Shown in pieces: positions 31,772 to 56,471 of a DNA stretch of 64,000 bases. Position numbers and translations under genes: made by a program. This DNA is from an uncultured candidate division Zixibacteria bacterium (GTDB lineage: Bacteria; Zixibacteria; MSB-5A5; GN15; FEB-12), in NCBI GenBank assembly GCA_963806185.1, contig CAWDXE010000007.1, positions 928,001 through 992,000 of the forward strand, read 5' to 3'. The notes under the pieces are model-generated. The model did no database searches. It saw only the letters and a list, made by a program, of their open reading frames with translations, and was not told the origin of the DNA. Position 1 is the stretch's first letter. Each line of letters starts with the position of its first letter.

Positions 31772-34033
31772 TTACTTCAGCAAGAGCATGCTTCGAGATT
31801 CGTGCACGTCTCCCGCTTCAAAGCGGTAGAAATAGATGCCGCTGGCGACGGCGGCTCCAAATTGGTCGCGCCCATCCCACTCCACTTCAGCACTGCCGGC
31901 CGGGCGGAATTCATCAACCAGTACCCGTACATTCTGCCCCAGTACGTTGAACAAAATCAAGCGAACGTGCGCCGGGGCGGCAAGCTGGAAGGCGATGGTG
32001 GTGGTCGGATTGAACGGGTTCGGGTAGTTGGCAAAAACCTCGGTGGTGGCGGGCAGCGAAAGGTCGGTTGCTGAGCCGGAGCCACTCAGAGCGGCCAACA
32101 GTGCCTGCTTCCCGGCCGACTCGGGGCAATTGACGAGAGCCGATAGCATTTGTCCCACGCGAATCTGGTTATTCATTCCGGCGGTGGAATCACCGGCAAG
32201 AGGATCCGATCCCGGGTTGTCACTCCGTCTCCATCCAAAATGCTCACTGATAGGGCAGATGTCGTCGAGGTCAATCGTTCCCGACCCGTCAGCGTCGGCA
32301 TACGTCATTGCCACTTTTCCCCAGCGATGGGCCGGTTCTGCGGCCGGGTCTGCCCCGCCCAGAGTCTGGCGAGCAGGGCCATCCTTCCCAAAATAAGCGC
32401 CGATGGGCAGGATGTCGCGCTCGTCGACGACACCGTTGTCATCCAAATCACCCGGATAGACGATCGGGCCGGTGAATACGGTGCCGACGTAACTGGTGGT
32501 CAGGATTTCCTCTGTGTGGCTTGTTAGTCCGGCTGAGACGAGGATATTGATCGTATCGTTGGGAAAGTGCCTGCCGTGCGCCTGTGTCACAATGAGCGAC
32601 CGGCTTGCGGGATCGTAGGCGTATAGCATCTGGCCAATGCGACGGCTCGTGATCAGCACATGGGAGGCGAGGCTCTGCTCATTAAGCGCATGGCTAAAGG
32701 TGAGGATAATTGGATCGGTAACGAGTATGTCGCCGAACGGGCTGGGCGGGGAGCAGGCGGCGCACGAGGTAACAGACATCGGCGTGGCGGGATCGACAGA
32801 AACTGTGAACATGGTCCCAACCACCGCGAAGCCGTCGGTCGCGGTTACCACGATTCTGTGGTCACCCGCCTGGCCGGCTGTCGGAGAGAATGAAAATGAG
32901 CCAGTGCCGTTTTCGTGATCCTCGAAAGAAGCATTGGCGGGCAGGTTGGCCATAGTAATGATCACCAGGTCACCATCGGGATCGGATGTGGTCACATCAA
33001 AGGCAAGGGTCTTGAGAGCAGAGACGTAGCGTTGAGTGACTCCTACGAGTTCCGGAGGACGATTGGTATTGGTGACCGTAATGGTGATCGTGGTCTCACT
33101 CTGGAGCAGGCCATCGCTCGCATGAAAAGTGGTATGGTATGTTCGCGCGGCGGCATAGCCGATTTCCCACTGAAAGAGGGCGGTCCCGTTGCCATAGTCA
33201 ACAAAGGTGGCTCCTGGTGGCATGTCAGTGACGCCCAGCGTCGGAATAGTCCCGTCCGGATCGGTAGCGTAGACCGAAAAGATAAGCGAGCTGCCTTCGG
33301 CGGCCGACTGACTGTCGACATGAGCGAGCTGCGGCGGGCGGTTGTCGGAGCGGACGGCTGTATTGATGGCGACGGCTGTCGTTTCCGTCGCGGCGTTGTA
33401 GGCGAATTGAATCGACGCCTCGAGCTGAGCGTCGGAGACGAAGACCCCTCCCTTGTTGATTACCACCGGGAAGTGAAGTGAATCGCCGGGCCAGATCAGG
33501 GCCAGCGACGGAGGGTCGACGGCGAGCCAGTCGGTTTGTGGGTAAGTCGATTTGGTGACTCGGGACGAATTTAACAGCACCAGTGCTTCACCCGTGTTGA
33601 AAAGCCACACGTCGACAGCGCGCTCCTGACCATAGAGGGCGAAATGATCAGTCGAATCGATTGTCGCGGGTCGAATGGTGAGCACACCGGCAAGGAATGA
33701 GAACCGATCAGAAACATCGGTGGCGGATCCGGATACGTCCGAGACGCGCACCCGGCAGGCAGGCGCGGTGATATACGGAATGAGACACGAGTACTGCCCG
33801 TCGTTGTACAGAAGGGTAGCGAGTCGACGCCAGGTCGCACCGTCGTCTGAAGAGAGGTCGACATTGACAAAAGGGATTTCCCCATCGGAAGTCCAGGTGA
33901 TGTACAGAGGTGTGCCCGCCTTGATGACGGTTCCGGCAGCCGGAGATTCAATGGCGATAGAGTTGGCCGAAGCCAATCCGGGAACGCTCAAACAGAGCGC
34001 AAGAAGCAGGAGCAATTTAGATAACAGATTCAT
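31772..34033 (-). CDS. Secreted multi-Ig protein with dockerin and FlgD/T9SS type-A-like C-terminal domain
   Basis: Signal peptide; NRPP...ATDPDG repeats; dockerin pair PGDLDDNGVVDERD / ADADGSGTIDLDD; NYPNPFNPTT...WDGRD...VASGIYFYR. Confidence 0.85.
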   Translation of the reverse strand: MNLLSKLLLLLALCLSVPGLASANSIAIESPAAGTVIKAGTPLYITWTSDGEIPFVNVDLSSDDGATWRRLATLLYNDGQYSCLIPYITAPACRVRVSDVSGSATDVSDRFSFLAGVLTIRPATIDSTDHFALYGQERAVDVWLFNTGEALVLLNSSRVTKSTYPQTDWLAVDPPSLALIWPGDSLHFPVVINKGGVFVSDAQLEASIQFAYNAATETTAVAINTAVRSDNRPPQLAHVDSQSAAEGSSLIFSVYATDPDGTIPTLGVTDMPPGATFVDYGNGTALFQWEIGYAAARTYHTTFHASDGLLQSETTITITVTNTNRPPELVGVTQRYVSALKTLAFDVTTSDPDGDLVIITMANLPANASFEDHENGTGSFSFSPTAGQAGDHRIVVTATDGFAVVGTMFTVSVDPATPMSVTSCAACSPPSPFGDILVTDPIILTFSHALNEQSLASHVLITSRRIGQMLYAYDPASRSLIVTQAHGRHFPNDTINILVSAGLTSHTEEILTTSYVGTVFTGPIVYPGDLDDNGVVDERDILPIGAYFGKDGPARQTLGGADPAAEPAHRWGKVAMTYADADGSGTIDLDDICPISEHFGWRRSDNPGSDPLAGDSTAGMNNQIRVGQMLSALVNCPESAGKQALLAALSGSGSATDLSLPATTEVFANYPNPFNPTTTIAFQLAAPAHVRLILFNVLGQNVRVLVDEFRPAGSAEVEWDGRDQFGAAVASGIYFYRFEAGDVHESRSMLLLK

Positions 34034-34198: not shown

Positions 34199-34717
34199 TC
34201 ACGGCATGAGCAGGATAGTTTCTTTGACCTGGGCGTCCATCGGTTGGTTGGCCGGGATAACCCCTTGCCCCCCTTTGATGAGCAAACCAAAGCCGAGAAT
34301 GAAGGAAATAATCTTCTTGTTGCCGCCCTTGGCCACGAGTGGACCGTCGGGTCCGGCCAGCGCAAGCTTACGGTTGTCGGGGGAGTTGTAGAAACCCTTC
34401 GCGTCGAGTTCACCGAGTTCGACCTCGATAGAGCCGGGCTTGCCGGGCTTGCCCGCGGGCTGGACCTTTTTCACCGTAGCCGTGCCGGTGGCTCCTGCCT
34501 TGACGACCGAAATGCCGCCGACAACGATAGAATCAACCAATTTGATCGGGACCTTGTCGCCGACCTTGGCACTGCCGGATGAGACCTTTTCTGTGAAGGC
34601 GACGCGGACCTTGGTGCCGGCGGGCACTTGCACCTGAGCGAAGCCAAGCGCAGTCAGCGCGAATAGCGCAACCAAGATCAGGATGAACATCTGTGCGGAG
34701 CGATAACGTATAGCCAT
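34199..34717 (-). CDS. Secreted TrbI/VirB10-like beta-domain protein, last gene of the T6SS operon
   Basis: Signal peptide; VPAGTKVRVAFTEKVSS..AKVGD...VVKAGATGTATV...G..GKPGSIEV; hydrophobic IISFILGFGLLIKGG; VIPANQ. Confidence 0.55.
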   Translation of the reverse strand: MAIRYRSAQMFILILVALFALTALGFAQVQVPAGTKVRVAFTEKVSSGSAKVGDKVPIKLVDSIVVGGISVVKAGATGTATVKKVQPAGKPGKPGSIEVELGELDAKGFYNSPDNRKLALAGPDGPLVAKGGNKKIISFILGFGLLIKGGQGVIPANQPMDAQVKETILLMP

Positions 34718-34737: not shown

Positions 34738-36972
34738 CTATTGAATAACGGGCAGAATATCAATCAATTTCTTGTCGAATACGATGGTAACGGACTGCGA
34801 ACCTATGGTCAGCGTTCCTTCCATTTCGAAGAGAGCGAAATCACTATTCAGGATTCTTTTGACTTCGCTTCGCTCGCCCCAGTATTCGTCTTTGCCGTCG
34901 TGATTGTCAGGGTCGAGAGCAATGTGAATCTCATCCCCCGCCTTCCACTTGAGGACGTACGGCTTAGGGAACGTGGAAGTGACAGTCTGCCCCCTGACCC
35001 AGGCGTCGGGTCGCCCCGGTTCTTTCACCATGATGTGCAAGTGGTGACCGGCCGGAATGTTGGTGGCGCGGTAGGCATAGTCGCCGCGCTTTGAGAAAGC
35101 TTCAATTCCCTGGACGTAACGATCAATCTTGGAAATCGCGTTGGCATTATTGGCTGGGTCGACACTCAGCGTCTGACGGGCCTCTTTCAGTTCCCGGACA
35201 GCGCCTTTGACGCGGTACATGAGATCAGTGCTGGCGTTGATGCGGTCGAACAAGCCGCCGATTTCAGAGCCAAGCTGACCGGCTTCCTTGCGCGTCTGCT
35301 GGACGACGGTTTTGGCTTGTACAACCTGTCCCAGGCCGCTGAAAGCCTCGACCAGAGCCGGACCCATTTGCGCCTTGTCCTGAGCGACGCGGTCGCGCAT
35401 CTGCTTGAGCAGTTCGGGATCATCGGGGGCGAAGATCATGCTGCGGAATTTCTGCCACATCCAGACGGCGCGGTCGGCGTCGGTCTTAAGTGTGGAATTC
35501 TCCGGGGCCGCTGAAGCAATGGACTGGAAATTGTCGCCCACTTTGACAAATTCGGAAGCGTCGAGATCGTCGACAAACAACGAATCGCCGCCATCTACTT
35601 TCCGAGACGGCCAGAGGGCGGTGTCGCGAACGATGCCGGTGAATTTGTCGAGCGAGACCTTCAGTTCGCGTTCGAGATCATCCACAGAGGCGGAGGTGTA
35701 TTTGCGATAGATGTCCTGCGCCACGAGGGCGTAGCCGGGGAAGAACTGCTTAACAACGAACGATTTTGAGTACCGTTCGTAGGCATTCCGAATTTGATTG
35801 CGCGGCTCTTTCGGCATGGTAAAGTAATTCGCGCTCGGATAATGTTCCCGGGCCGTGTCCTCCACCCGGGTGGTGAAGGGCAATTGATACCAGAAATGGA
35901 ACATGAAGGGAATCGAGTAGACGATGATCCAGATGGCGGCGACGATCGAGGTCCATTTGGCGACCGTGCGAAACCGGCTGATCGATTTGTTGCGGGCGAT
36001 AGCCTGGAGAATCCAATAGAACGGGGCTTTCACGCCGATGGGCGTAAGTTTGTCCGGCGGACGGTACTTGGAATGACCGACGTCGGAGCCAATTTTGATC
36101 GGCGGCTGGCCGGTGGCCGAGACGAAGAAGATCTGGAAATCCAGGGTCCGTCCCAGCACGACGCGCAGGAGTTCGCGCGATTTTACGAGGATGTCGCGGA
36201 CTTCACCCGCCCAGGTCTGGTTGCGCGTGAGCGCGGGTTCGGTCATGACCTTGGCGACGAAGGTGTCAAAGTCTTCCGAGATGGCGTGCTCATTTTCCGG
36301 AGTAAGCAGAGTGATCTGCGCCTCGTCGCCAAAGCCGGCGAGCGTGTCGGATTTGGTGACCATCAGAGCGATCGGGATAGGAATTCGTCCCTGATGCGGG
36401 GCGATGCGCTCAAGGATGGTGACGAAGGTCTCCACGCGCGAGCGGCAGCCCAGTTCATCGAAGCGCAGTTTGGGATCGAAGACAAAGATCAGGGCGTCAC
36501 AATTGCAGAAGAAGTCGATAGCCTTTTCGCGCTGTTCCGGATTGCCGCCGAGCGACAGGATTTCGCCGGGGAAATCATAGCAGACGACCGGCACCTTGGC
36601 GCTGCCGTTGAGAATCGCCGTGAAGCGCAGGATCAGATCATGCATGGTGGCGTCCGGGAACGATTTATCACCCATGCGTTCAAAGCGAGTGCCGGGACCC
36701 TCGCTGACGGCCCGGCCGGTGATGGCGCGGGTGTTCTTGACCAGTTCGTTGGAAGTGGCCGTGTCGGAAACAGACAGTTGCAGTTCGCCGGCGAAGCGAG
36801 ACTCCTCGTACAGCACGGTGTAGAGAACGGTCTTACCGGTATAGCCGTGGCCGACGATGCCGATCTTGATGCCGGAGGGCCACTGCGTGGTAACCGCTGG
36901 TTTGCCGCCCTTCTTCCCTGAAGCGGCAAGCTTTGCTTTCTTTGAACCTAAGATCAGACTCGAAATATCCAC
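34738..36972 (-). CDS. Membrane-anchored TRAFAC-like GTPase domain protein (candidate TssM analogue)
   Basis: G1 GHGYTGKT, G3 DFPG, G4 TKSD, G5-like VSATG; single TM WTSIVAAIWIIVYSIPFMF; large helical then beta C-terminal region. Confidence 0.75.
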   Translation of the reverse strand: MDISSLILGSKKAKLAASGKKGGKPAVTTQWPSGIKIGIVGHGYTGKTVLYTVLYEESRFAGELQLSVSDTATSNELVKNTRAITGRAVSEGPGTRFERMGDKSFPDATMHDLILRFTAILNGSAKVPVVCYDFPGEILSLGGNPEQREKAIDFFCNCDALIFVFDPKLRFDELGCRSRVETFVTILERIAPHQGRIPIPIALMVTKSDTLAGFGDEAQITLLTPENEHAISEDFDTFVAKVMTEPALTRNQTWAGEVRDILVKSRELLRVVLGRTLDFQIFFVSATGQPPIKIGSDVGHSKYRPPDKLTPIGVKAPFYWILQAIARNKSISRFRTVAKWTSIVAAIWIIVYSIPFMFHFWYQLPFTTRVEDTAREHYPSANYFTMPKEPRNQIRNAYERYSKSFVVKQFFPGYALVAQDIYRKYTSASVDDLERELKVSLDKFTGIVRDTALWPSRKVDGGDSLFVDDLDASEFVKVGDNFQSIASAAPENSTLKTDADRAVWMWQKFRSMIFAPDDPELLKQMRDRVAQDKAQMGPALVEAFSGLGQVVQAKTVVQQTRKEAGQLGSEIGGLFDRINASTDLMYRVKGAVRELKEARQTLSVDPANNANAISKIDRYVQGIEAFSKRGDYAYRATNIPAGHHLHIMVKEPGRPDAWVRGQTVTSTFPKPYVLKWKAGDEIHIALDPDNHDGKDEYWGERSEVKRILNSDFALFEMEGTLTIGSQSVTIVFDKKLIDILPVIQ

Positions 36973-37006: not shown

Positions 37007-37957
37007 TCAGCGCGAGCCGGCATCGGTCTTAACCGCAGGTGAATTATTCGCGGGCGACGTTACGTACTCTTCCTGAAATTCCTGCAATTTGTGTTGCGTG
37101 TGTGACGACCAGAGTTTGGGCACCAGAATTGCCAGCGCTATGCTGACAATGATGATCCCGGCATACAACCCGTAAGCCGCTTTGCGCTGGGTCATGGTTA
37201 GCCAGAAATACCGATTACTCGAGAACGAACCCCGGAATTTGCGGCCCATTCCCGAAAATGAGGCTTTGACGCGGTCCCAGAATCCTATCTCAGTGACATA
37301 TCCCCATTCGCCAAAGTACAGGGCGGCCAGTTTGTCGATCTTGCTTTGCTTGTCGAAATACCCCAATTTCTGCAGAGTATACTCGAGAGAATTGCGGTCG
37401 CGCAGCAATTCGTTGCCGAATTCGAGCCGACGCCTGCCGAGTTCGAGTAACTGGTGTGGAAGCGACATCGCCTGCAAGGCCTCGGGCGACAGTCCGGCGT
37501 CAATTGGTGAGCCAAACTTGCTGGCGAAACGGGCGATTTCTCCCAGAAAGAAGACGTGCAGTCGGAAGTTGCCGTTCAGGGAGCCGGTCTGGAACAACTT
37601 CGGCACAAGGTGGTTGGCCATGTACGCAATGTCCTGCTTAATGGGACGGACACCACGACAATATGGGTACGCACGGTTATTCTGACCTTCGACTACAGCT
37701 ACGGACTCGAAATAGGAGACCAGAATCTGAACGGATAACTCACGCAGATCGGACGAATTCAGCGGTTGGGTCTTGATCTTTTCAAACAAGAGCGAGTCGA
37801 CCTCGACCGCCTTCTCCTTCTGGTGCCGCAGGGTGCCGAAAACGGCATAGATGCCATTATATGTTTGAAGAAAAGCCTCGGTCTCGAACTGAGCGTACTT
37901 GGTTTCGTACGTCTCGAGATAGGCGAAGAGGTCATTGATATAGTTCAGTGCGTCCAT
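37007..37957 (-). CDS. C-terminally anchored membrane protein (candidate TssL analogue)
   Basis: Helical soluble N-terminus with one TM near the C-terminus (YGLYAGIIIVSIALAILVP); lies directly after tssK. Confidence 0.6.
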   Translation of the reverse strand: MDALNYINDLFAYLETYETKYAQFETEAFLQTYNGIYAVFGTLRHQKEKAVEVDSLLFEKIKTQPLNSSDLRELSVQILVSYFESVAVVEGQNNRAYPYCRGVRPIKQDIAYMANHLVPKLFQTGSLNGNFRLHVFFLGEIARFASKFGSPIDAGLSPEALQAMSLPHQLLELGRRRLEFGNELLRDRNSLEYTLQKLGYFDKQSKIDKLAALYFGEWGYVTEIGFWDRVKASFSGMGRKFRGSFSSNRYFWLTMTQRKAAYGLYAGIIIVSIALAILVPKLWSSHTQHKLQEFQEEYVTSPANNSPAVKTDAGSR

Positions 37958-37981: not shown

Positions 37982-39419
37982 TCACACCGTGTAAACCGAG
38001 AGATCCGACTTGCGCATAGCCGACAATTTATCGGCAATAGCGGCGCCGGAAACAATCAACGTGAAGCGCCGAGCCGACGGGTGGCGATCCATACCGTCGG
38101 GCCTGAGCACAACTTTGCTGCCATACGAGACCGAGTCGATGACCACCGGGTCGACTTGCCCGAGGCCGGTGGACTTCGTTGATACCGAACTTGGCGCGCA
38201 TGCCGGACCACTCTCCAGCCGAGAGCAGTTCCTTGGCTACAAATACCAGTGCATCGGATACGGCCATCGGTTGGGCGAGATTGATCGATAAGTAGGTCAA
38301 TTCGCCGATCCGTTCCACTTTGTGCTCGCCGAACGCGGCCAGACGATAGGTGCGACCGTTGTAGGTGAGCGTTTCTTCGACAACGGCCCCGCGGTCGAGC
38401 TTGACCGGATCTTCCTGAGCCAGGAAACCGAGCACGCCGCGTAGTCGAGCCAGGATGTCGTCGATAGCTGCGAGCCCTAATGCTATTTGACGATGATCAT
38501 AGTCGGCCAACAGGAAAGTGTCGACGGCGGCCTCGAACGTGCGAACGTCGCCTTCCCCCTGCCGCGAGAAAAACTTCTCGTTGAGGTGGTCGCGCAATCT
38601 GGGCTGGAGCAAGAGGGCAGTGCGATAGAGACGGAAGAGCCTCTTGAGGAGAGCGACCATTTCGGCCGGATGCCCGGCGTTGCGCGTGGTGATCAAGCTG
38701 TCGGCGAACGCGGCGGTATGAGTGGCGCAGGCGAACAGCGCCTCGCGGACGGCCATTTGCAACTCGGAATCGGCAGGAGCCGCCGCAACCTTCTGATAGC
38801 CGGTGGCCGCTAATTTGAGAAGATTCTCTATGCGATTGCGGAATTCCTGAGCCTTGGCCATGAGTCGGGCGTCAGCCGACAAGGAGAGGCACGGAGGAAT
38901 ATAGCGATCTGAAATAGCTACCGAACCGCCGGCGACATTGATCTCGGCGACTTGCAGATAGTGTCCAACCGGAAGATCGGGTGGCTGACTCAAATGAAGT
39001 CGGTAATCAAAGGCGCGATACGGCGGCCTTGGAATATCTTCTCCGGGATCCGGCTGGCCCGCCTCACGTTTCGCCTGAGGCGACAGGCTGATATAGACCG
39101 GTACAGCGGCGTCGGACACTCGAGTATCGGCCTTCACCACGGGTTCGGTGGCGGGGTTGATTTCAACCACGCAGTAATCGGATGTAAGGGCCTGACAGCG
39201 CACTACCTGAACGGCCAGCGTAGAGCCGCTGAGGCTCAAGTGGAGGCTGAGCGAGGGCTCGCCGGAGGACGATTTGGCCGCCAGACCGTAATAGTCCCCT
39301 CCGCGCAGCGCATACCAGCGCACGAGGTTCTCAAAGTAAGCTTCCTGGTCGCGAAGGTGCTGCTCGCTCATGAGCATACCATCCTGCCAGTTTACAGAAA
39401 GAAGTCGAAATTCACTCAT
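37982..39419 (-). CDS. tssK: T6SS baseplate subunit TssK (apparent +1 frameshift near 38170)
   Basis: VNWQDGMLMSEQHL..QE, YGL, CQALT, GQPDPGEDIPRPPY, YIPPCL. The +1 frame continues ...GQVDPVVIDSVSYG...LSVYTV* to 37982. Confidence 0.8.
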
Positions 39420-39479: not shown

Positions 39480-40433
39480 TCAAGACACCTTTGCCCGCAT
39501 CTGTCTATCGTTCTTTGTTTTGGCCAAACGGGCAGTATAGCCCAGACGATTGAGTCGATTTGGACCGGCGAGCCGACCGGCCGTAGGTAGACTGGCCACC
39601 CGCACGCGGCAGTTCATCCCCGCAGGCAGACAGACAGACAGCACCTCGTCCACCTTCCTCCGCAGGGGGTGGTTTGGCAGGAGGTCGGCAACCTGGTTCG
39701 GTGGGACATCGTGCACCGTCACCTCAAGAGAGGTATCGCACTCTGAGAAACTATTGCCCAGCACAGATTCGTGCCCCAGCGTATTCTGGTTCTGACCGAG
39801 TCTCCAGCGGAGTGCCTCAGGAGTCTCATGTCGGCTTTCAACGTTTTCCTGTATGGTAAAGCGAAAGCCAAAAAGGGCCTGGAGAAATCGTTCGACAAAG
39901 CGGGGGTTACCGCCCCAGTGGTAGAAGCCGGGCATAGACTCGGCCCAGACGCGCAGAGCATTGAGATCGGATTCCCCGACAGCGGATTGGTCAAACAACT
40001 GCAAGTAACGGGTCAAGTGGTGCTCGGACAGGATGCTGAAATTATAGGCCAGCGGCACGAGGACTGCCATCGCCTCAGCGTGCATAACCGCGGCGTCGAA
40101 GGGCGCCATGAAGCGGCGGGCATTATCTTCCCACTCGCCGGTACGATCGATATTGCCGGCCAGACCGTAGAAAAATTGGTACGGGAGAATATCAACGGCA
40201 CTGGCGAAGCCAACGTTTAGCGTAATGATCGAACTCGGGTAAAGCTCGGCACCCGGCGGTGGGTCCTGTTCCTGGATTTCACCACGGTAGTTGCCGGAGC
40301 TGCCCACAGCCAGGAATTGCATCTGGTGTGCCTCGACACCCAGTCGCTCCAGGATGATCAAGGCGACGGGTAGCGTGACAGGAGCACGTCGGTTTGAAAG
40401 ATTGGGCATGAGTTGCAGGCTCACCGGGCTCAT
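39480..40433 (-). CDS. tssG: T6SS baseplate subunit TssG with N-terminal PASTA-like domain
   Basis: DILPYQFF, EDNARRFMAPFD, WRLGQ..LG...LG, as in Bacteroidota-type TssG; ATGA overlap with tssF. Confidence 0.75.
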   Translation of the reverse strand: MSPVSLQLMPNLSNRRAPVTLPVALIILERLGVEAHQMQFLAVGSSGNYRGEIQEQDPPPGAELYPSSIITLNVGFASAVDILPYQFFYGLAGNIDRTGEWEDNARRFMAPFDAAVMHAEAMAVLVPLAYNFSILSEHHLTRYLQLFDQSAVGESDLNALRVWAESMPGFYHWGGNPRFVERFLQALFGFRFTIQENVESRHETPEALRWRLGQNQNTLGHESVLGNSFSECDTSLEVTVHDVPPNQVADLLPNHPLRRKVDEVLSVCLPAGMNCRVRVASLPTAGRLAGPNRLNRLGYTARLAKTKNDRQMRAKVS

Positions 40434-42079
40434 CGAGTTATCACTTCCACCTTGTATCGAGTATTGACGGCGGATCGAGCGGTGAGGAATCTCATCAGAC
40501 GATCGCGCGTCAGTTCAAGTTCCACTTCGGAGAGAAAATCATCCGCCTTGACATGGGCCTCCACCACAAGACACCGGCGCATACCGCGCTCGCCGCGTTC
40601 CACTCCCGGCCGGCAGTTGACTCTGGAGATTCGGGGATCAAAAGACGCGGTCCAGCGCTGAATGTCGGCGAAGGAGAGGGCGCGATCGCGCCCGCGCAGG
40701 CGAGCGGCAACTTCGGCCATCAATTGTTCTTCGTTGCGAGCCGGGACGGCTCCTTTAGACGGAAGCAGATTGGCCACGCTGGTGATACCGGGGTGAGGTG
40801 TGAACATCTCGTTTATTTTGCCGGGATCGATACCGTTGGCTTTGGGGCCAAGGGTCACACCGTAGAAGACGGTCAGTGATTCAGGGATGACATCGGCGGT
40901 CGGCGGAATCTCAATCCAGACGACGATGTGGTCTCTCCGTTCCTCCGTTGAGTACGTGTACATCTCCGGAAGAGACGAGTAGTGGCTACGCGTGCCGTAT
41001 TCGGTGCCTCGGGAGTCGACGACCCGGGAGATGCCGAGGACCTGTTCTGAGGGCTCAGGAAGTTCCATCTCAATGACGCGATTGGTGCCGGTGTGCTTGA
41101 ACAACGAGAGTTCATCCTTGTTGACGACGACGCAGCAATCAGTAAGCAATCGAGGCGTTTCGGCCAGGGCGCGGCGGTCGCCGCCAGCCGGCAGGTCAAT
41201 GCGCAGCCAGAAGAGCTTCTCGGCATCGTAGGGCATGGCAATACCTCTACGGGCGAGTTCTTCGCGAGTGTCTTCAGATATTTGGGATGGATCCCATTTT
41301 TCCACAAAGGATTCCGGGAGCCCGAGAAACTGTTCCTGCAGAATAGCGAACAGGTCATTGGTCGAGCGGAAGCCGCCCCACTGGCGGTCGATCAGCTCGT
41401 CCTTCAATTCTGCATTGCGAGAACCCGGACAGAAGCCGAATTCCTCGCGGAACCGCCCGGTGGCATCCGCGGGCAACCAGTTTCCCCAGATGATCTGTTT
41501 GGTGGCTTGAGGTTGGCCGTGAACAAACATCTGCGCTCCGGCCAACTGATGCGGGCGGCCATCGAAAGCCAGCCCAACCAGCAGGAAGCCCTGTCCCCGT
41601 CCGGGGATTTTGGCAGCCGTGGTCGAAGAAGCCAGCAGGTCGACTGCGACCTGATCGACGACGGCAAACATCTGGCGAACGGTCGTCTTGCAGAGACGTT
41701 CCGGCTTGAAAGCGGAGAAGTAGAAGGTATTCCCCCCGCGCCGCTTTTCCTGGTAGGAGAACTTGGTATTGACGTCGATCTCAACTACCGGGTCCAGGAG
41801 TTGACACTGCAGTACGGAGAAGGCGGGAACCGGCCAGCGGCTGATTTCGGGATACATCGACTGGATGAGCGCCTTGGTGGCGCGATCCCAGACCTCTTCA
41901 ACTCGTTTCTCGATTGTGGAAAGCTGATAGGCGTAGAGCTGCATCAGCATGCGCAGGACCGGGTCCAGTCGTTCGGCCGATTCCGGTGTTTCCGGATTCA
42001 TTCGCCGAAGCTGCCGGTGCATTTCGCGGAAGATTTCGTCGTGGGCTCTCGCCCGTCCTTCAATAGGTGTGCCCGCCAT
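40430..42079 (-). CDS. tssF: T6SS baseplate subunit TssF
   Basis: RLDPVLRMLM, P....PVPAFSVL, T.G..ANGI, LRGRDRALSFADI; position between tssE and tssG. Confidence 0.8.
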   Translation of the reverse strand: MAGTPIEGRARAHDEIFREMHRQLRRMNPETPESAERLDPVLRMLMQLYAYQLSTIEKRVEEVWDRATKALIQSMYPEISRWPVPAFSVLQCQLLDPVVEIDVNTKFSYQEKRRGGNTFYFSAFKPERLCKTTVRQMFAVVDQVAVDLLASSTTAAKIPGRGQGFLLVGLAFDGRPHQLAGAQMFVHGQPQATKQIIWGNWLPADATGRFREEFGFCPGSRNAELKDELIDRQWGGFRSTNDLFAILQEQFLGLPESFVEKWDPSQISEDTREELARRGIAMPYDAEKLFWLRIDLPAGGDRRALAETPRLLTDCCVVVNKDELSLFKHTGTNRVIEMELPEPSEQVLGISRVVDSRGTEYGTRSHYSSLPEMYTYSTEERRDHIVVWIEIPPTADVIPESLTVFYGVTLGPKANGIDPGKINEMFTPHPGITSVANLLPSKGAVPARNEEQLMAEVAARLRGRDRALSFADIQRWTASFDPRISRVNCRPGVERGERGMRRCLVVEAHVKADDFLSEVELELTRDRLMRFLTARSAVNTRYKVEVITR

Positions 42080-42082
42080 AGT

Positions 42083-42457
42083 TTAACCCAGATTGTAGAA
42101 GGCTTCAAACGGACGCAAGTGGCCGCCATCAGTGTATTCGCCGGTAACCTTGACGGCTACACCAATGCTGCGCGTCCCCACCGAAGTCGGTTGTTCGAAG
42201 GAGACAACGACGCTGGAAAGGCGGCGTTCGTACTTCTGAATAGCGTCACGGAGTCCGGAGCGAAGTTCAGATTTATTAGATGCCTGAATGTCGGCGTATT
42301 CGCGATCCCAGATGACCGAGCCGTATTCAGGATCGAACGGCAGTTGGCCCTTGCGAGTGGAGAGAATCAGACCAATCGAATACATGATTGACTCCTGCAG
42401 CGAAACGGACGGAAGATAGCCGTCGCGCAGGACGAGTGGAAGACCGAGGTAACGCAT
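42083..42457 (-). CDS. tssE: T6SS baseplate gp25-like TssE
   Basis: SIMYSIGLILSTRKGQLPFDPEYGSVIWD, AIQKYERRL. Confidence 0.88.
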   Translation of the reverse strand: MRYLGLPLVLRDGYLPSVSLQESIMYSIGLILSTRKGQLPFDPEYGSVIWDREYADIQASNKSELRSGLRDAIQKYERRLSSVVVSFEQPTSVGTRSIGVAVKVTGEYTDGGHLRPFEAFYNLG

Positions 42458-44319
42458 TAGTTAATCTTCACCGGCATACCCTGCACGGTGAGCGGGCCGT
42501 TGGCCTTGACCGTTCCAGTAGCGGCGCCCTCGACCGACAGAGTCGTGCCCTTCACGGTACACGAGGCGGTAGCCTCGAGATTGGCGTTGCCGGTGGCGGT
42601 TAGTTTCATGTCAGCCGTGGCCTTGGCCGTAAAATTGGCTTTTGCGGTTTCTTCGATATTGCCGCCGGCGGAGACTTTGACATCCTTGCTGGTTGCCTCA
42701 ATCGTGACCGACTCCTGAGCCTTTAGCGTGATGTTCTTCGCAACCAGGTTGATGTCTTCTTCACTCTCGATGGTAATTGAGATGCCGCCACTGACGGCAT
42801 CGAGAATTATGCAATTCTTGGCCTTGGTCTGGCGGATAATGACTTTTTCGTTGCCCGGCGAATCGACGAAGAGGATTTCGTTGCCGGAGACGGTTCGCAA
42901 GATCTTGATCACGTCAGAACCGCTCTCGGAGGCCGCCACCTCGCTTCCATCGACTATGCCCTTTGGCGGCAAATCCTTGCCGTTGTGCATGACGCCGAGT
43001 ATAACCGGCCGATCGGGGTCGCCGTTTTCGAAGCCGACGAGCACTTCATCGCCGACGTCCGGAAACGAAAACCAGCCGCGATCATTGCCGGCATCAGGCC
43101 GGGCCATGCGGCACCAGAAGAGCGACTCGTTCGCCATCCACGGGAGCGTGACCCGTATCCGGCCCATCTTCTCGGGATCGTTATTGTCAGCCACCAACCC
43201 GTACTGCAAATGCGTGGACCGATTCGTTGGGTCGTTGACCGGCGCAAAGGCAAGATCGAGAGGAACAGCCTGGAAACGGTTATGATACTGACCGCTATCG
43301 TTGATCACATGCGTTATTTCCGTGAGCCAGTACATGCCTCCGACGTTGCCGAGTTTGGCAATTTCGACACAACCGCCGAGGCCGATCGAGAGATCAATCG
43401 ATTGACCAATGGCCGTGACCAGTCGTCCCGCAGCACCGGAGCTCTGATTCTGCACAACTGCCTGCACATGGCTGGGAGAAGCTACTGAAGGGACATAAGA
43501 GAAATTGGCGGCGCTGTTGTAGATGGTTTTGGAGGCGTCGACGGAGGCCTTGATCAATCCGGACACCGCGATGGAAGGGAATTTCTGGGTATGCGACACC
43601 CATTCTTTCTTCTTGGGGTCCATCAGTTGAGCGTCGAAACCCAGCGATGTCGTGCCGAGATCGAGCATAAAGCTTCCCAGCGTTTCCTCAAAAGGCAGTC
43701 GCACCGACGTGGAAGACGAAGCCTTGCCGACGATGAATTCCTTGCCGGTGTAATAGGCATACAGACCATTACGAGCAGCCAGCCGGCAGATGTACTCATA
43801 ATCGGTTTCGTTGAACTGATGCAGTTGTTCGCTTTGTTCTGACGTGGAGGTTATCACCCCCTTGGTGATATCGTATTCGCCGAGGATAGTATCAATGGCC
43901 TGAGAATCCGTCTGATTGAACAGAAGACGGTTGTGCCTGACACTGTCGAGCAAGCAGGTGGGGCTTTGGGCCTCGATCAAGATCCAGTTGGCACCATCGA
44001 CGGAATTCTCTAAAGCGACACGAGTAATGAGACCGATGAAAGTCAGGCTTTTGTCACTTCCGGTGAGATTATCGAATGGCTTGATGGTAACCGTGATTTT
44101 TTCGCCGAGACCGTTGGTGTACGGCGTCGGGTCGATCGGGTCATTTGGGCCGAGTGCACCGACCTCCTTGACGCGCACGTTCAGGACGTGATGACCATCG
44201 ATGCGCTGGATCAGTTCCACGCCGGAGACGGATGCCTCGAGGGTCGTTTGACCGATGCGCACGTCGCAGAAGACGGAGATTTCGATCTTGGGCGTATACG
44301 GCGAATTGGATTGCTTCAT
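42457..44319 (-). CDS. vgrG: T6SS spike protein VgrG with gp5 OB-fold and no effector extension
   Basis: QRIDGHH, QFNETDYEYICRLA, VADNNDPEKMGRIRV, PDVGDEVLVGFENGDPDRP, beta-helical repeats ending VKIN. Confidence 0.93.
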   Translation of the reverse strand: MKQSNSPYTPKIEISVFCDVRIGQTTLEASVSGVELIQRIDGHHVLNVRVKEVGALGPNDPIDPTPYTNGLGEKITVTIKPFDNLTGSDKSLTFIGLITRVALENSVDGANWILIEAQSPTCLLDSVRHNRLLFNQTDSQAIDTILGEYDITKGVITSTSEQSEQLHQFNETDYEYICRLAARNGLYAYYTGKEFIVGKASSSTSVRLPFEETLGSFMLDLGTTSLGFDAQLMDPKKKEWVSHTQKFPSIAVSGLIKASVDASKTIYNSAANFSYVPSVASPSHVQAVVQNQSSGAAGRLVTAIGQSIDLSIGLGGCVEIAKLGNVGGMYWLTEITHVINDSGQYHNRFQAVPLDLAFAPVNDPTNRSTHLQYGLVADNNDPEKMGRIRVTLPWMANESLFWCRMARPDAGNDRGWFSFPDVGDEVLVGFENGDPDRPVILGVMHNGKDLPPKGIVDGSEVAASESGSDVIKILRTVSGNEILFVDSPGNEKVIIRQTKAKNCIILDAVSGGISITIESEEDINLVAKNITLKAQESVTIEATSKDVKVSAGGNIEETAKANFTAKATADMKLTATGNANLEATASCTVKGTTLSVEGAATGTVKANGPLTVQGMPVKIN

Positions 44320-44330
44320 CAATAGTCAAA

Positions 44331-44371: not shown

Positions 44372-44776
44372 TTATTCCTGCCACCGGTTATCGATGCTGG
44401 CGTCAGCAATGCTGAGCGTCTGGCACGAAATCTGAAACTCCTCGTAGACCTGCTGGTCGGGACTCTCTTTGACGTGCGGAATAGTCTCCTTGTACGACGT
44501 AATGAAACCGTCGGTCCAGGTCAACTCTTTCATGACCGAGTCGTCGGGGTTGCGGAAGATGACCTTGCCGCCCTTCCAGTTCGGCTTTGCCGAGTTCATG
44601 GCCCAGGAAGCCATGGTGGTGTCAGCCGTCGATTCGCGGATGACGGTAATCACGCCGGCGTGGGCGCGGTCCGAGGGGCGACCGGTTTCGTCTTTCGCGG
44701 TATAAAGTACGTACGTGACCGAGTAGACGTTCGGATACGCGACTCCCTCAACTTCCAAAGTAGGCCGTCTTGCCAT
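44372..44776 (-). CDS. tssD: T6SS tube protein TssD/Hcp, Bacteroidota type
   Basis: 134 aa; DETGRPS...GVITVIRES...W......GGKVIF....MKEL.W..G.I.SY.E. Confidence 0.88.
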   Translation of the reverse strand: MARRPTLEVEGVAYPNVYSVTYVLYTAKDETGRPSDRAHAGVITVIRESTADTTMASWAMNSAKPNWKGGKVIFRNPDDSVMKELTWTDGFITSYKETIPHVKESPDQQVYEEFQISCQTLSIADASIDNRWQE

Positions 44777-44853: not shown

Positions 44854-46281
44854 TCAGCTCTTGTCTTTGACGCCGGTCTTGCCGTCCTCGTTCCACGCCG
44901 CGAATTCGATAAAGAAGGTGCGGGCGGGATATTTCGGATTGAGCATGACCTTGATGTCGATTTCCTGACGCTTGCGCATTTCCTGGTCGGCGAAGATTTC
45001 GATTTTGTAATCTTCCAGGATCGAATCGGGGCCGGATATCGCCTTCATGAATTTCTCGATGTCGGTGCGCAGGGTGACGAGGAACTTCTCGTCGATTACG
45101 GTAAACGTCTGCTTATTGAGATAATTGCGGAGCGTCTTGTAGACGTAATCATAAGTCCGCCGGATCGAATAGACATTGAATGTCTCCTTGGTAAACAGGG
45201 TAGCGGCGCCCATCGCAACGGCAGAACCCTCGAAGTTTACCATGGGGTTGACGCCCTTTTCGTTGATCTTGCCGGCGTCGACCTGATTTACCTTGAAACG
45301 AAGGTACTTGGCGTCGCTGATCTTGCCGTGCTTGTAACCGGCCATCGGCTGCTGCATACCGGCCGTGGTGTCGCCCTGATACATCTTACCGGCGACGGAG
45401 GCTGACGGCGGCACCCACATGTCGTCATCTTCGTACTGATTAGCCGTGCGGGCAAGCACGTAGTTGGCGAAGATGGCCACATATTGCTTGTAATTGTCGA
45501 CGCCGGGCAGGTTGGCATAGTTCGGATCGTCAAGCATCTCCATGACCTCTTCGAACTTCTCGAAGTTTGGCAGATCGGTGAGCACCTGACACTTGTTGGC
45601 GAAGCCCAACTGCCGGGCGAAGTTGTCGACATTCTCGACACTGCCAAGATAGCCGGGAACAACGGCCATACCGAAGGCCTCCTTGATGCTGAATTCCCGA
45701 TAGAGGTCGGCGACGGCCTTGCAGAGTTGTTCGAACTTCTCTTTGTCGTTCGGGTCGGTCAGTTCTTCGGCCGACACATTGGCGAACCAGACGTTCACTT
45801 TTTCGTCAGGTTCCTGCTGGGCGTTGGCGAAGAACTTGTCGACGGCCCGGTAGGCGAGTTCGAGCTCGCGAGCAGTGCGATGGACGGTCTTCATGTTTTT
45901 GGAAAGGTTGGTCTCGAGTTTGGCCGCGGCCTCGGCGAGGCCCTTGCGCACGTCGTCGGGCGACTTGCTCGTGGACAGATGCTCCATCCAGAGTTTCATA
46001 CGATGGGCGAGAGTCTTCCGGCGGGCGGCAAATTCGGGTTTGTTGAGAAACTCCTTACGTTGAAACTCCTTTTTGGGGTCGAGCCATTCGACGCCGCTGA
46101 CCAGATCGTTGTCGGGAGTTTTGAACGACGGCATCAGAGCAGCCAGCTTGCTGTAGTCGCCGAACGAATCGGACAACAACGCCGCAAACTGGGCATCTGA
46201 AAGTCGGGCTTCAGTTTTCGCCGGAGCCTCGGCAAACGCCGGCTGTTCACCAGCCGATTCTTTTTTGACTTCATCAGACAT
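44854..46281 (-). CDS. tssC: T6SS sheath large subunit TssC, Bacteroidota type
   Basis: RELELAYRAVDKFFAN, VVPGYLGS, N.VLAR, VPPSA.VAGKMY, Q..AGYKHG, YSIRR.YDYV. Confidence 0.88.
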   Translation of the reverse strand: MSDEVKKESAGEQPAFAEAPAKTEARLSDAQFAALLSDSFGDYSKLAALMPSFKTPDNDLVSGVEWLDPKKEFQRKEFLNKPEFAARRKTLAHRMKLWMEHLSTSKSPDDVRKGLAEAAAKLETNLSKNMKTVHRTARELELAYRAVDKFFANAQQEPDEKVNVWFANVSAEELTDPNDKEKFEQLCKAVADLYREFSIKEAFGMAVVPGYLGSVENVDNFARQLGFANKCQVLTDLPNFEKFEEVMEMLDDPNYANLPGVDNYKQYVAIFANYVLARTANQYEDDDMWVPPSASVAGKMYQGDTTAGMQQPMAGYKHGKISDAKYLRFKVNQVDAGKINEKGVNPMVNFEGSAVAMGAATLFTKETFNVYSIRRTYDYVYKTLRNYLNKQTFTVIDEKFLVTLRTDIEKFMKAISGPDSILEDYKIEIFADQEMRKRQEIDIKVMLNPKYPARTFFIEFAAWNEDGKTGVKDKS

Positions 46282-46296
46282 ATTGTGTCACCTCGG

Positions 46297-46737
46297 TTAT
46301 TCGCTCAACAGATCCACATAGTGCTGCATGATCTTCAGCAGCGCTTCTTTTTTTGCCTTATCCTCAAGCGTCTTGAGCAGCGCCTTGTTCTTTTTGAGCT
46401 GCTGTTCGAGATCATTGAGGATTTCCTTACCGTAGTACGTGTCACGCAGGTAGTCGTTCTTCTCAATCAGCTCTTTGGAGGTGAAATCCTTCATCGATTT
46501 GACATCGAAGTGGGCGTTGACCTGCTGGCCGTCGGTCGTTTCCAGTTGAGCTTCGAAGTTCGGCTGGAATTTTTCGAAGACCTCTTTCATGTTGGAGCAA
46601 CGGACCGGCGTGACGTCCGGGTTGTCTTCGGTATTCAACCGTGCCGCATAGAGCGTCTTGTTTGACTGCAACAACTCGACCGGAATCGAATCATCCTTTT
46701 TCACTTTCTCGGTGGCCCCGAGAACAAATTTGGCCAT
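46297..46737 (-). CDS. tssB: T6SS sheath small subunit TssB, Bacteroidota type
   Basis: NKTLYAARL, VFEKFQP, F..MKDF, QLKKNKALLKTL; lies just before tssC. Confidence 0.85.
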   Translation of the reverse strand: MAKFVLGATEKVKKDDSIPVELLQSNKTLYAARLNTEDNPDVTPVRCSNMKEVFEKFQPNFEAQLETTDGQQVNAHFDVKSMKDFTSKELIEKNDYLRDTYYGKEILNDLEQQLKKNKALLKTLEDKAKKEALLKIMQHYVDLLSE

Positions 46738-46757: not shown

Positions 46758-47876
46758 CTAGGCGTCTGCCCGTTTTTCTGTCGTAAAAATGTAGGCGTCA
46801 TTCTGCACATCGACCAGGACCCGGTCTCCTGACGCGATGGCGCCGGTGATGATGTCAACAGAAAGACGGTTTATTATATCGCGTTCAATTGTGCGTTGCA
46901 TGGGGCGCGCCCCAAGGTCGGGGACGTAGCCGTCGTGAGAGAGCTTGGTTTTCGCAGCCGGCGTCAGGACGGCCGTGATGTTCTGCTCTTTCAACATGTT
47001 GTTTACGGTCTCGAATTCCAGGACGGCGATCTTTTCGATCTGCTGCTGCGTGAAGGAGTGATACACGATGATATCGTTGAGCCGGTTGAGGAATTCGGGG
47101 CGGAACTTGCCGAAGAGGAAGCTGCGGACTTCTTCCATGTCGACCTCGCGTCCTTCGCGATCGGCCTCGAGAATGCGATCGGCGGCGTAGTTTGATGTCA
47201 GTACGACCATGCAGTTGGAGAAGTTGACCGTTCGCCCCTGACCGTCGGTAAGACGGCCATCGTCAAGCAACTGCAAAAGGACGTTGAACACGTCGGGGTG
47301 CGCCTTCTCGACTTCGTCGAAGAGGATAACCGAAAACGGTTTCCGTTTGACGGCTTCGGTCAGAAGGCCACCCGCCTCATAACCGACATAGCCGGGCGGC
47401 GCGCCGATCAACTTGGCGACGGAGTGGGGTTCCATGAACTCGGACATATCCATGCGGACCATGGCATTCTTATCGTCGAAGAGAAACTCGGCGAGCAGTT
47501 TCGGGAGGTAGGTCTTCCCCGTTCCGGTAGGGCCGAGGAAGAGAAAAGAGCCGATCGGGCGATTGGCCAGCTTAAGACCGGCGCGCGCTTTCCGCACGGC
47601 GTTGCAGATCGCCTTGATGGCGTTTTCCTGCCCGATGATCTTCTTCTGCAGGAACCCCTCCATGTTGACCAGACGGTCCTTTTCGGCGGTCATCATCTTG
47701 GAGAGCGGAATGCCTGTCCTCCGCGCCACGACCGCGGCAATATCTGACGCGTCGATGGTCTGATCGAGCTTGCCGACGACTGACTGCAACAACTCAAAGC
47801 GAGCCCGCTTGGCGTCAAAGGACGCCTTCAGCTGTTCGACGCGAACCGGTGTGGGCTTGATCTTCTTTTCGCTCAT
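46758..47876 (-). CDS. ClpV/TssH C-terminal half (second AAA+ module)
   Basis: TGIP, IIGQ, FLFLGPTGTGKT, RMDMSEF, GAPPGYVGY, FDEVEKAH, FRPEFLNR, GARP; has its own AGGAG RBS and an ATGA overlap. Confidence 0.9.
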   Translation of the reverse strand: MSEKKIKPTPVRVEQLKASFDAKRARFELLQSVVGKLDQTIDASDIAAVVARRTGIPLSKMMTAEKDRLVNMEGFLQKKIIGQENAIKAICNAVRKARAGLKLANRPIGSFLFLGPTGTGKTYLPKLLAEFLFDDKNAMVRMDMSEFMEPHSVAKLIGAPPGYVGYEAGGLLTEAVKRKPFSVILFDEVEKAHPDVFNVLLQLLDDGRLTDGQGRTVNFSNCMVVLTSNYAADRILEADREGREVDMEEVRSFLFGKFRPEFLNRLNDIIVYHSFTQQQIEKIAVLEFETVNNMLKEQNITAVLTPAAKTKLSHDGYVPDLGARPMQRTIERDIINRLSVDIITGAIASGDRVLVDVQNDAYIFTTEKRADA

Positions 47877-49331
47877 ACGCCGGCTCCTGCTGCATCGATA
47901 CGATGCCCCCAGAGTTCATCGAGACGATTGACCGTGGCCTCGAATGTCTCGACGGCGGTTTTCAGTTTGCCGTACTCTTCGGATTCGGGATCAGGCTCTT
48001 TGCCGCCGAACGCAGCCAATTGCTTCTCGATCTCCTTCGCCTGCGCCTGCAGGGCGACGATCTTGTCCTTTCCGAATTCCTGCTTCACGGCATATTCCGA
48101 CGCGGCTTCGTCGATGATATCCAGCGCGATATCAGGGAGATTCCGTTCGGCCAGATAGCGGGTGGCGAACTTCACGGAGCCAACGATGGCGTCCTCAGTG
48201 TAGGTAATCTTGTGGTGCTCCTGGTACTTGGGAACGACGCCGCGGACAATGCGGATGGCTTCATCAGGAGAGGGTGGCTCAACCTTGACGCGTTCAAAGC
48301 GACGGTCCAGGGCCTTGTCTTTTTCAAGATGCTTGCTGTACTCTTCTTCCGTGGTCGCACCGACGAGGCGTATCTGACCGCGAGCCAGCGCCGGTTTAAG
48401 GAGATTGGCGGCATCCATGCCTCCGCCGGTTGAGCCGCCGCCACAAATCGTGTGGATTTCGTCGATGAAGAGCACAATGCGCCCGCCAGACTTGACGACG
48501 TCGCCCACGAGGGCCTTGAACCTCTCCTCAAATTCGCCTTTGTACTTGGCACCAGCGACGAGAGAACCCATGTCGACGCCCATGACTTTGACGCCGTGCA
48601 GGGAGCGCGGGACTTTTTCCTCAACTACGGCCTGAGCGAAGCCCTCGACGATGGCGGTTTTCCCTACACCGGCACCGCCGACGAGGACGGGACTGTTTTT
48701 GCGACGACGAAGCAGAATTTGAATGACTTGCTGGATTTCTTTGTCACGTCCGACGCAGATGTCAAATTGGCCGGCGGCCGCCTGATTGGTGAGATCTTCG
48801 CAATAACGGAGCGTCCCCGAGACCTCTTTGGAACCGGAATCAGAGTCACCGGATGACGGAGCGGTCGAACCGGCAGTCGCGATTTGCGCAACGGCCTTGG
48901 CCTCGGCGATCGCCTGGTAGATGTCTTCAGTGGTAACGCCGAGCCGATCACGCAGCACGCCGGGGAGCTTTGAGCGAACGTCGAAGGCGGCGATGAAAAT
49001 ATGCTCGGGCTCCACCAGCGCGTCGTATAGTTTGGCCTTCTCCTCAAGAGCCTGCGCCAAGGCATTCTGGGCCGCAGGGGACATTGTCAGGTTCTCTCTG
49101 ACGGAACTCTTCGACGGCTGTTCCTTCAGGAATTCTTCGACGATCGACTCAAGGTGGGCCCGGCTCTTCCCCAATTGCGAGAGGATGGACTCCAACCCTG
49201 ACCCTTCGTGGCGAATGGCAGCGACGAGGAGATGTGGCAAGTCAATTTCGGGGTGCCGGAAGGCGACGGCCACTTCCCTGGGCGGTGCGTATAACAGATC
49301 GAGAATCGGACGAATAATTGGCTATATCCAT
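47873..49331 (-). CDS. ClpV/TssH N-terminal half (Clp-N, first AAA+ module, coiled coil; apparent +1 frameshift near 49277)
   Basis: MDIANYSSDSRSVIRTAQ from ATG 49331 joins EVAVAFRHPEIDLPHLL after removing one G; VGRDKEI, GGAGVGKT, FIDEIH, LKPALARG, RRF, LPD.A.D. Confidence 0.88.
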
Positions 49332-49525: not shown

Positions 49526-50215
49526 TCATCTGGCGTACAGGTCAAACCAGGAAAGATTCAACTCCTTTGCCCAGGACATAACGGCCCGACCAGGCGAAGC
49601 CTGCACTTTGAGAGTGACAAAACCGATCTGCCGGCCATCGCACCACCAATGCAGGTGGTCGATGTGATCCGAGTGATCGGGGGCGGTCGGGGGTTGCGTC
49701 TGAATCCCCAAAGTCAAACCGTCGTGGGTTTCCGTCTGCTGCGGTTCAAAACGAAGAGATTCCGTCAACACGGCCGCAGCTACTTTTTTGACGAATTCCA
49801 GGGTTGGTTGGTCGGGTGGCTTGGGCCAGTCCAGGGTGATGCTGATGAGACAGAAAGTCTGACCGATGTCGATCTGCTTTCCCGCCCATTGGTACCGGAC
49901 TCGCACGATATCGCACCGGTTTTGACGATCTCCGGCAAATGCAATATAGCGGGCATCGCCGGGTGGCTGGGCGGAATCGACCATGATTTGGTCAATCCAG
50001 GAAGTGGCAATCTCGACGGCTTCTTTCTGGCCAGGTGCGCGACCGGGTGTGGTACCAGCGGTCAGCGCATCCTCCTCCGTTTTGGTCAAGGAGACAAGTT
50101 GGGCACTTACGTTGTCAAATGGCATAGCCGATTCCTTCCCTTTCTCGGTTGGATTTCCGCAAACGGCCAGGACAAAAGCAATGGCAGTCAGGGTGGCAGC
50201 CTGGCACGGCTTCAT
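49526..50215 (-). CDS. Putative lipoprotein, candidate immunity protein of the LysM effector
   Basis: MKPCQAATLTAIAFVLAVC lipobox-like; ATGA overlap with the upstream effector stop. Confidence 0.55.
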   Translation of the reverse strand: MKPCQAATLTAIAFVLAVCGNPTEKGKESAMPFDNVSAQLVSLTKTEEDALTAGTTPGRAPGQKEAVEIATSWIDQIMVDSAQPPGDARYIAFAGDRQNRCDIVRVRYQWAGKQIDIGQTFCLISITLDWPKPPDQPTLEFVKKVAAAVLTESLRFEPQQTETHDGLTLGIQTQPPTAPDHSDHIDHLHWWCDGRQIGFVTLKVQASPGRAVMSWAKELNLSWFDLYAR

Positions 50216-52448: not shown

Positions 52449-52459
52449 GACTGCCGCAA

Positions 52460-52891: not shown

Positions 52892-52893
52892 GA

Positions 52894-53673: not shown

Positions 53674-53674
53674 T

Positions 53675-56008: not shown

Positions 56009-56030
56009 AATTGCGTATGCGACGGTCGCC

Positions 56031-56468: not shown

Positions 56469-56471
56469 GAA

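Follow-up and report, generated by a model that had tools for sequence, protein, structure and literature searches.

What does a membrane-anchored GTPase do at the point of a type VI secretion system (T6SS) operon where TssM would be expected? The question is raised by a 64,000-nucleotide stretch of DNA from an uncultured Zixibacteria bacterium (assembly GCA_963806185.1, contig CAWDXE010000007.1, positions 928,001 to 992,000; hereafter, the window), which carries a 13-gene run composed of a split clpV (two open reading frames, ORFs), tssB, tssC, hcp, vgrG, tssE, tssF, tssG, tssK, X316, the GTPase gene as the 12th member, and X172. A first-pass annotation, made from the letters alone, had taken the GTPase for a TssM analogue or remote homologue. 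We found that it is a real, conserved core gene of a T6SS variant, apparently undescribed so far, and consider it probable that the protein is a compact remote homologue of TssM, which would form the inner-membrane core of the envelope anchor of this system. The motifs, the fold, the single transmembrane (TM) segment, the fixed gene order and the near-exclusion of canonical TssM are the observed part of this case. The protein and its parts are located as follows:

34738..36972, minus strand: bitopic TRAFAC GTPase of 744 amino acids in the TssM slot, the subject of this work (motifs, structure model, topology, homologue family)
35983..36876, minus strand: predicted cytoplasmic GTPase domain, residues 33-330, DO-GTPase2-like, with the TssM-type G4 extension TKxDxLxGF
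35893..35949, minus strand: the sole TM helix, residues 342-360, preceded by a basic stretch
35092..35889, minus strand: predicted periplasmic helical region, residues 362-627 (structure model; no similarity to its TssM counterpart was detected)
34741..35091, minus strand: C-terminal beta domain, residues 628-744; it and the beta domain at the C-terminus of TssM are weak reciprocal best matches

The protein is a bitopic TRAFAC GTPase

The GTPase motifs were located at residues 41 (GHGYTGKT, G1), 133 (DFPG, G3), 206 (TKSD, G4) and 284 (VSA, G5-like), and a sequence scan indicated one hydrophobic segment, at residues 342-360. The structure model (pLDDT 86.3, pTM 0.53) comprised a GTPase domain, a long TM helix, helices up to residue 627 and a beta domain, so that the features read in the first-pass annotation, i.e., 744 amino acids, the G1, G3, G4 and G5 motifs, one TM segment and a helical region followed by a beta region, were all recovered. 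The presence of G1, G3 and G4 on a Ras-like P-loop fold identifies the protein as a TRAFAC GTPase. The motifs are indeed intact, as had been emphasized, but they do not set the protein apart from TssM, since all 10 canonical TssMs that were aligned keep GK, DTAG and KCD.

Among 48 homologues, the catalytic positions were invariant or nearly so, an N-terminal hydrophobic stretch was present in none, and basic residues preceded the TM segment in 47. The predicted topology places the GTPase domain in the cytoplasm, in line with the earlier reading. The conserved TKxD suggests GTP as the nucleotide, though this motif alone is no proof. The homologues of the main group were 727-744 residues long, and those with names came for the most part from Zixibacteria. 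Relatives of the protein start with a basic amphipathic helix (median moment 0.76, n = 112), which is weak in the GTPase of the window (0.35) and which may replace the N-terminal TM segments of TssM.

Fold searches with the full-length model retrieved TRAFAC GTPases only, with coverage confined to residues 32-332. Because the GTPase domain dominated the model in both searches, the fact that TssM structures were not listed is no evidence in either direction. The top Foldseek rows included GBP1, atlastin and Sey1, yet with rmsd above 20 and E of about 1e-4, and an identity as a dynamin or atlastin was rejected. No sequence relative was found in the PDB with either the protein or its profile, and no match to it was found on plasmids.

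The GTPase is conserved with the T6SS core and nearly excludes canonical TssM

We surveyed 285 genomes of the phylum and, separately, the best 80 of 134 loci in a genome collection, which overlap with these genomes. As the genomes are related and not independent, all counts are descriptive and no statistical test was applied. The GTPase was present in 145 of the 285 genomes and TssC in 151, in six of them as a weak match (E of about 1e-6). The two occurred together in 143 genomes, and the four genomes with one of them alone are 58-77% complete. Thus, the GTPase accompanied 143 of the 145 strong TssC matches. In the locus survey, tssK followed by X316 stood directly before the GTPase gene in 68 of the 69 loci with at least 3.5 kb of upstream DNA, and X172 followed it in 58 of 63; the order tssK-X316-GTPase was also seen in 17 of 20 hand-picked diverse loci. 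The T6SS association presumed in the first-pass annotation therefore extends to the homologues. In four genomes (G170, G245, G252, G253), the GTPase gene lay away from a core that ended at X316, and X172 still adjoined it in most loci where it had left the core (G170, G241, G252). In a second phylum, labelled Krumholzibacteriota, the GTPase was found in 21 of 208 genomes, one of which gave an extra weak match, and the order tssK-X316-GTPase was kept in all four T6SS loci opened.

Canonical TssM (PF14331) was detected in 23 of the 285 genomes, in clusters with the order J-K-L-M-tagF-A, and overlapped with the GTPase only in G179. TssL, TssJ and TssA were not found in four GTPase-bearing genomes, including that of the window (G000, G071, G188, G010), in a search that detected them in the positive control G284. 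TssN was likewise not found in the same four genomes, with detection in the positive control, Hymenobacter plasmid W01, and TssR was not found in five genomes in a search that had no positive control. The operon itself encodes no five-TM protein and no lipoprotein.

Some side observations belong here. The canonical clusters (L061-L071, 23/285 genomes) are of the T6SS-i type, tssJ-K-L-M-tagF-tssA; G179 has both kinds of system, and L069 contains a 1353-residue ORF with the length of a TssL-TssM fusion. The genomes G190-G195 (family f9) had two weak TssC matches each (E of about 1e-6) and no GTPase, which are possibly phage-like or extracellular contractile sheaths. In families f5, f16 and f17 (L045, L046, L078, L048, L080), the X172 relative is encoded on the other strand and converges on the GTPase gene or its GAP1-like neighbour; in f16/f17 a PAAR gene follows.

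Two regions of the protein have TssM-like features

The G4 motif is followed by an extension, K.D...G[FY], that was present in 25 of 28 family members and 11 of 12 TssMs, and in 2 of 33 DO-like GTPases and 1 of 60 HflX, YsxC and EngA sequences. The stretch from G4 to the TM segment matched that of TssM with a profile probability of 81.6 (E 1.1e-5). When the C-terminal beta domain of the family was the query, the TssM C-terminus came top among 32 windows (score 26.1, versus 18.7 for the runner-up), and with the TssM beta domain as the query, the family domain came top among 12 (30.0 versus 17.7). Together with gene order and layout, these features support the view that the protein is a TssM analogue or remote homologue. 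A raw family-TssM profile probability of 96.7 was dropped as evidence, because control profiles scored equally high.

Two observations weigh against homology: (i) the periplasmic helical region showed no detectable likeness to that of TssM (hhalign E 0.45); and (ii) in profile comparison, the GTPase core was no closer to TssM than to HflX. A quick tree that included 16 of the 28 family rows grouped the family with TssM and DO-like GTPases, apart from three housekeeping GTPases (SH-aLRT 95), and did not settle the placement within that group. The Pfam model IcmF-related_N (PF14331) gave no match to the GTPase of the window; it matched 24 of the 48 family members at E up to 1, the best being 3.8e-4.

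Analogue or homologue: the link to DO-GTPases

The closest competitor of remote homology is that a membrane DO-GTPase/GAP1-N2 module was separately recruited as the anchor of a Bacteroidota-type tail, the protein being an analogue of TssM and the common layout a convergence within one GTPase radiation. DO-GTPase2 was the best Pfam family for 48 of 48 members, so that the "double-GTPase" lead of the first-pass annotation proved right. The GTPase of the window scored 23.1 bits against this family (cut-off 27), and deep relatives were above the cut-off (28.5-32.4 bits). A domain profile run against 1.84 billion proteins gave 49 matches below 1e-30, 146 below 1e-10 and 1083 below 1e-3; 74 of the 150 listed matches were typed, and among these 60 were DO-GTPase1/2, one was also weakly related to IcmF-related_N, and canonical TssM did not occur. 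That the family scores close to the DO-like set (283) is partly circular, since the profile of the family itself served to gather this set, from which 5 of 38 rows without a clean G4 had been removed. Two genomes, G309 and G318, have a T6SS in which curated cut-offs are exceeded by the GTPase (32 bits; cut-off 27) and also by the product of the gene after it (GAP1-N2; 42.5 and 37.1 bits; cut-off 24), and in these the GAP1-N2 is fused to a TM segment with a long outer part. DO-GTPases with a C-terminal TM segment and an outer beta-sandwich are described in the available text of Kaur 2020 (PMC7159879). Locus L179 (L179:2918-7598) encodes a TM-bearing DO-GTPase2 of 810 residues, then a TM protein of 748 residues and a further two proteins with several TM segments each, and its 9.9-kb contig has no T6SS gene; this pairing of a TM-GTPase with a TM partner also favours separate recruitment, as does the GTPase core that is not specifically TssM-like.

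Against recruitment stand the G4 extension, common to the family and TssM and nearly absent from DO-like GTPases, the reciprocal-best match of the beta domain with TssM, and the occurrence of a TssL-like neighbour and a TagF-like partner in canonical order. The function would be the same under either reading. On balance, we regard separate recruitment as unlikely.

The protein also differs from DO-GTPase systems, whose defining features, according to Kaur 2020 (PMC7159879), are a Glu at Walker B and GAP1 encoded downstream. At the Walker B position the GTPase of the window has E, and the family has K in 21, R in 14, D in 5 and S in 3 of 48 members (K/R in 35/48); the Glu is present in f5 and some f16 members, and in f5 and f16 the next gene weakly matched GAP1-N2 in 6 of 6 cases. 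A GAP1-like gene occurred in 25 of the 285 genomes, 24 of them among the 145 with the GTPase, and was not found in the genome of the window, which is 82% complete. With Walker B Glu unconserved and GAP1 not found in this genome, the protein has a DO-GTPase-like core and is not a member of such a system.

Anchor or regulator

We also considered whether the GTPase might regulate the T6SS as a sensor or switch in the membrane, i.e., as a threshold module from a conflict system, with X316 alone or a protein encoded elsewhere as the load-bearing anchor. Kaur 2020 (PMC7159879), in the available text, proposes DO-GTPase/GAP1 pairs as switches, the periplasmic part of the GTPase is about 380 residues long versus about 670-740 in TssM, and in the four genomes named above the GTPase has left the core while X316 stays with tssK. 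Nevertheless, presence with 143 of 145 strong TssC matches, versus 24 of 145 GTPase genomes for the GAP1-like gene, marks the GTPase as a core part and not an accessory. X316 continues for only about 35 residues past its TM segment and so cannot span the periplasm, and no other known anchor was found (TssL, TssJ, TssA, TssN; four genomes). A purely regulatory role thus appears quite improbable.

Hardly credible is an untethered or released contractile system in which the GTPase would be a linked but separate membrane-remodelling or release factor: TssA and TssJ were not found, and the poorly superposed GBP1, atlastin and Sey1 were among the top Foldseek rows, but TssK, TssB/TssC and ClpV, the marks of a membrane-docked, recycled T6SS, are present. 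TssA is, moreover, missing in T6SS-ii and -iii as well, according to the available part of a 2026 review (PMC13584744).

Neighbouring proteins

The structure model of X316 weakly resembles TssL: three TssL/DotU structures ranked 12, 25 and 26 among 48,161 chains, with 83-88% of each aligned. No sequence match of X316 to TssL, no Foldseek match and no usable ESM Atlas match were found.

X172 is a candidate outer-membrane partner in place of TssJ. A lipobox-like motif occurred in 2 of 100 members of its family. No PDB match was found for X172, and a weak test for longer homologues found none. In the ESM Atlas, the nearest Pfam-bearing cluster was TrbI (16% of members, score 0.78), which is a lead only, and TrbI was not among 25 of the 28 Pfam families listed for 72 X172 members. 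A likeness of X172 to VirB10/TrbI is our assumption, to which the Pfam and PDB searches gave no backing. The genome of the window contains a second, weak match to the X172 profile (G000:C1:450778-451425, E 7e-4).

Judged by its sequence, the GAP1-like protein of deep lineages weakly resembles TagF: the two comparisons gave E 3.5e-4 and 1.9e-3, versus at least 0.13 for 16 control pairs, and DxxGR was present in 21/21 and 11/11 sequences. No PDB sequence relative was found with the GAP1-like profile. In two T6SS loci (L177:386-3430 and L178:108-3134), the gene that comes directly after the GTPase encodes GAP1-N2 joined to a TM segment and about 650 further residues that belong to no known family; there are two hcp genes in L178.

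The operon and its surroundings

The other genes of the operon are the following:

34199..34717, minus strand: X172, small exported protein (signal peptide by eye, no lipobox, second hydrophobic stretch near the C-terminus)
37007..37957, minus strand: X316, all-alpha cytoplasmic protein with a C-terminal TM segment (residues 261-279) in the TssL slot, fold weakly TssL-like
37982..39419, minus strand: tssK (this assembly has a frameshift near 38177; most relatives have an intact gene)
39480..40433, minus strand: tssG (Pfam PF06996)
40430..42079, minus strand: tssF, divergent (PF05947 E 0.0013; TIGR02243 E 8.8e-8)
42083..42457, minus strand: tssE
42457..44322, minus strand: vgrG
44372..44776, minus strand: hcp, TssD family (PF17642)
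44854..46281, minus strand: tssC (PF17541), nearest plasmid relatives being Bacteroidota sheaths
46297..46737, minus strand: tssB
46758..49273, minus strand: clpV/tssH as two adjacent ORFs (47873-49273 and 46758-47876), a split kept in relatives

The tssK frame breaks after about residue 419. Of 12 other genes of this genome that were checked, one had a frame change. Scattered breaks also occur in operon genes of relatives (e.g., G158, G008, G004), which makes an assembly error plausible. Such an error was rejected for clpV in view of the conservation of its D1/D2 split, which is kept in 15 of 17 core-bearing loci; the gene is fused in L035, L043, the f16/f17 loci, L180 and L181.

Upstream of clpV lies a cargo-like run (49526-57620, minus strand) with a PAAR protein (56472-57620), a DcrB-like protein (52460-52915) and further uncharacterised ORFs of 445, 300, 259, 777, 145 and 241 residues; the PAAR, DcrB and 300-residue ORFs recur close to the system in relatives. 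After X172 comes an exported 753-residue protein (31772-34033, minus strand) with Ig/cadherin repeats and a C-terminal FlgD-Ig, and several relatives have a similar gene. Many loci of the collection contain a match to protein kinases on the opposite strand, no more than 9 kb downstream of the GTPase; the window has a membrane kinase at 59072-61243, and in f5 loci a kinase-like gene stands ahead of clpV.

Proposed mechanism and significance

By analogy with TssJLM, the GTPase would oligomerise in the inner membrane with X316 in the TssL slot, and the TssK-bearing baseplate would dock onto their cytoplasmic face. The helical rod would cross the periplasm, so that the C-terminal beta domain could meet the outer membrane, probably with X172 replacing TssJ. 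Nucleotide binding might switch the cytoplasmic domain, and hydrolysis might license docking or tube passage; a switch driven by the nucleotide cycle is proposed for Agrobacterium TssM in the available text of Ma 2012 (PMC3346141). Gating by GTP hydrolysis, also put forward in the first-pass annotation, is something that we infer only by analogy. In deep lineages, the GAP1-N2 protein of the next gene, a likely TagF counterpart, would tune the switch.

If the GTPase is a remote TssM, this would be a third kind of T6SS envelope anchor, TssM would likely be tied to the "double-GTPase" conflict systems, and the ancestor of the Bacteroidota-type tail probably had a TssM-like anchor. A parallel between TssM/TagF and DO-GTPase/GAP1 would explain the GTPase motifs in TssM. 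One phylum has the proposed three-gene anchor, which is unlike TssJLM and TssNOPQR and sits on a Bacteroidota-type tail, in half of its sampled genomes, and a second phylum has it in 21 of 208. A bolder and rather doubtful extension makes the system a fifth T6SS subtype, with its three-gene anchor as a living intermediate: a DO-GTPase/GAP1-N2 conflict switch would be the ancestor of TssM and TagF, Zixibacteria and Krumholzibacteriota would have retained the early form, compact and GTP-gated, together with a Bacteroidota-type tail, and the small exported X172 would be a VirB10-like outer-membrane pore replacing TssJ.

The nucleotide role of TssM is disputed and the full-length protein is hard to purify, as stated in the available text of Ma 2012 (PMC3346141), which finds the same motifs in TssM and assays it as an ATPase. 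The one-TM form described here, with a free N-terminal domain of 330 residues and near-invariant motifs, offers an easier test of that question. We came across neither an account of this system nor a connection between TssM and DO-GTPases in the literature searched, which includes few subscription journals. The main text of Kaur 2020 (PMC7159879) makes no link to T6SS, and two of its supplementary files contain no match to Zixibacteria, T6SS, IcmF or Krumholz, while its source data may bear on this.

Comparison with known systems

The 2026 review (PMC13584744), in its available part, distinguishes four subtypes of the T6SS; the membrane complexes named in it are TssJLM and TssNOPQR. The present system shares with T6SS-iii a tail of TssC PF17541 and TssD PF17642 and the lack of TssA; 10 of 14 plasmid matches to its TssC were Bacteroidota sheaths, at 28-31%. 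It differs in that TssN was not found in the four GTPase-bearing genomes searched (control positive), and TssQ, TssO and TssP carry TM segments at the N-terminus, where X316 and the GTPase have a cytoplasmic domain. Bongiovanni 2024 (PMC10781749) describes the T6SS-iii of Bacteroidota with TssNQOPR, calls the origin of this complex hard to identify and, in the part available, does not mention an NTPase.

With DO-GTPase2/GAP1-N2 systems, the GTPase has in common the best Pfam family and the nearest relatives (among the matches listed), a GAP1-N2 gene immediately after it (in f5, some of f16, G309 and G318), and a TM segment with an outer domain, an architecture already described. It differs in that Walker B Glu is unconserved in the main group, the GTPase is single-copy, no zinc ribbon, FNIII or GASH partner was seen in the loci, and the gene is embedded in a T6SS.

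The likeness to TssM/IcmF consists of (i) a position after tssK and a tail-anchored gene, mirroring tssK-tssL-tssM-tagF of canonical loci; (ii) Walker A, DxxG and TKxD with the LxGF extension; (iii) a layout, from model and topology, of cytoplasmic NTPase, TM segment, periplasmic helices and C-terminal beta domain; and (iv) a TagF-like gene downstream in deep lineages. In contrast, canonical TssM has 1106-1144 residues (about 1130 versus 744; one fused form has 1353) and N-terminal TM segments, whereas the GTPase has one TM segment and no N-terminal pair, a shorter periplasmic part, no TssJ lipoprotein and a Bacteroidota-type tail, and its family falls far under the IcmF-related_N cut-off. By formal membership the protein is thus neither a TssM nor part of a DO-GTPase system, even though it probably works like TssM.
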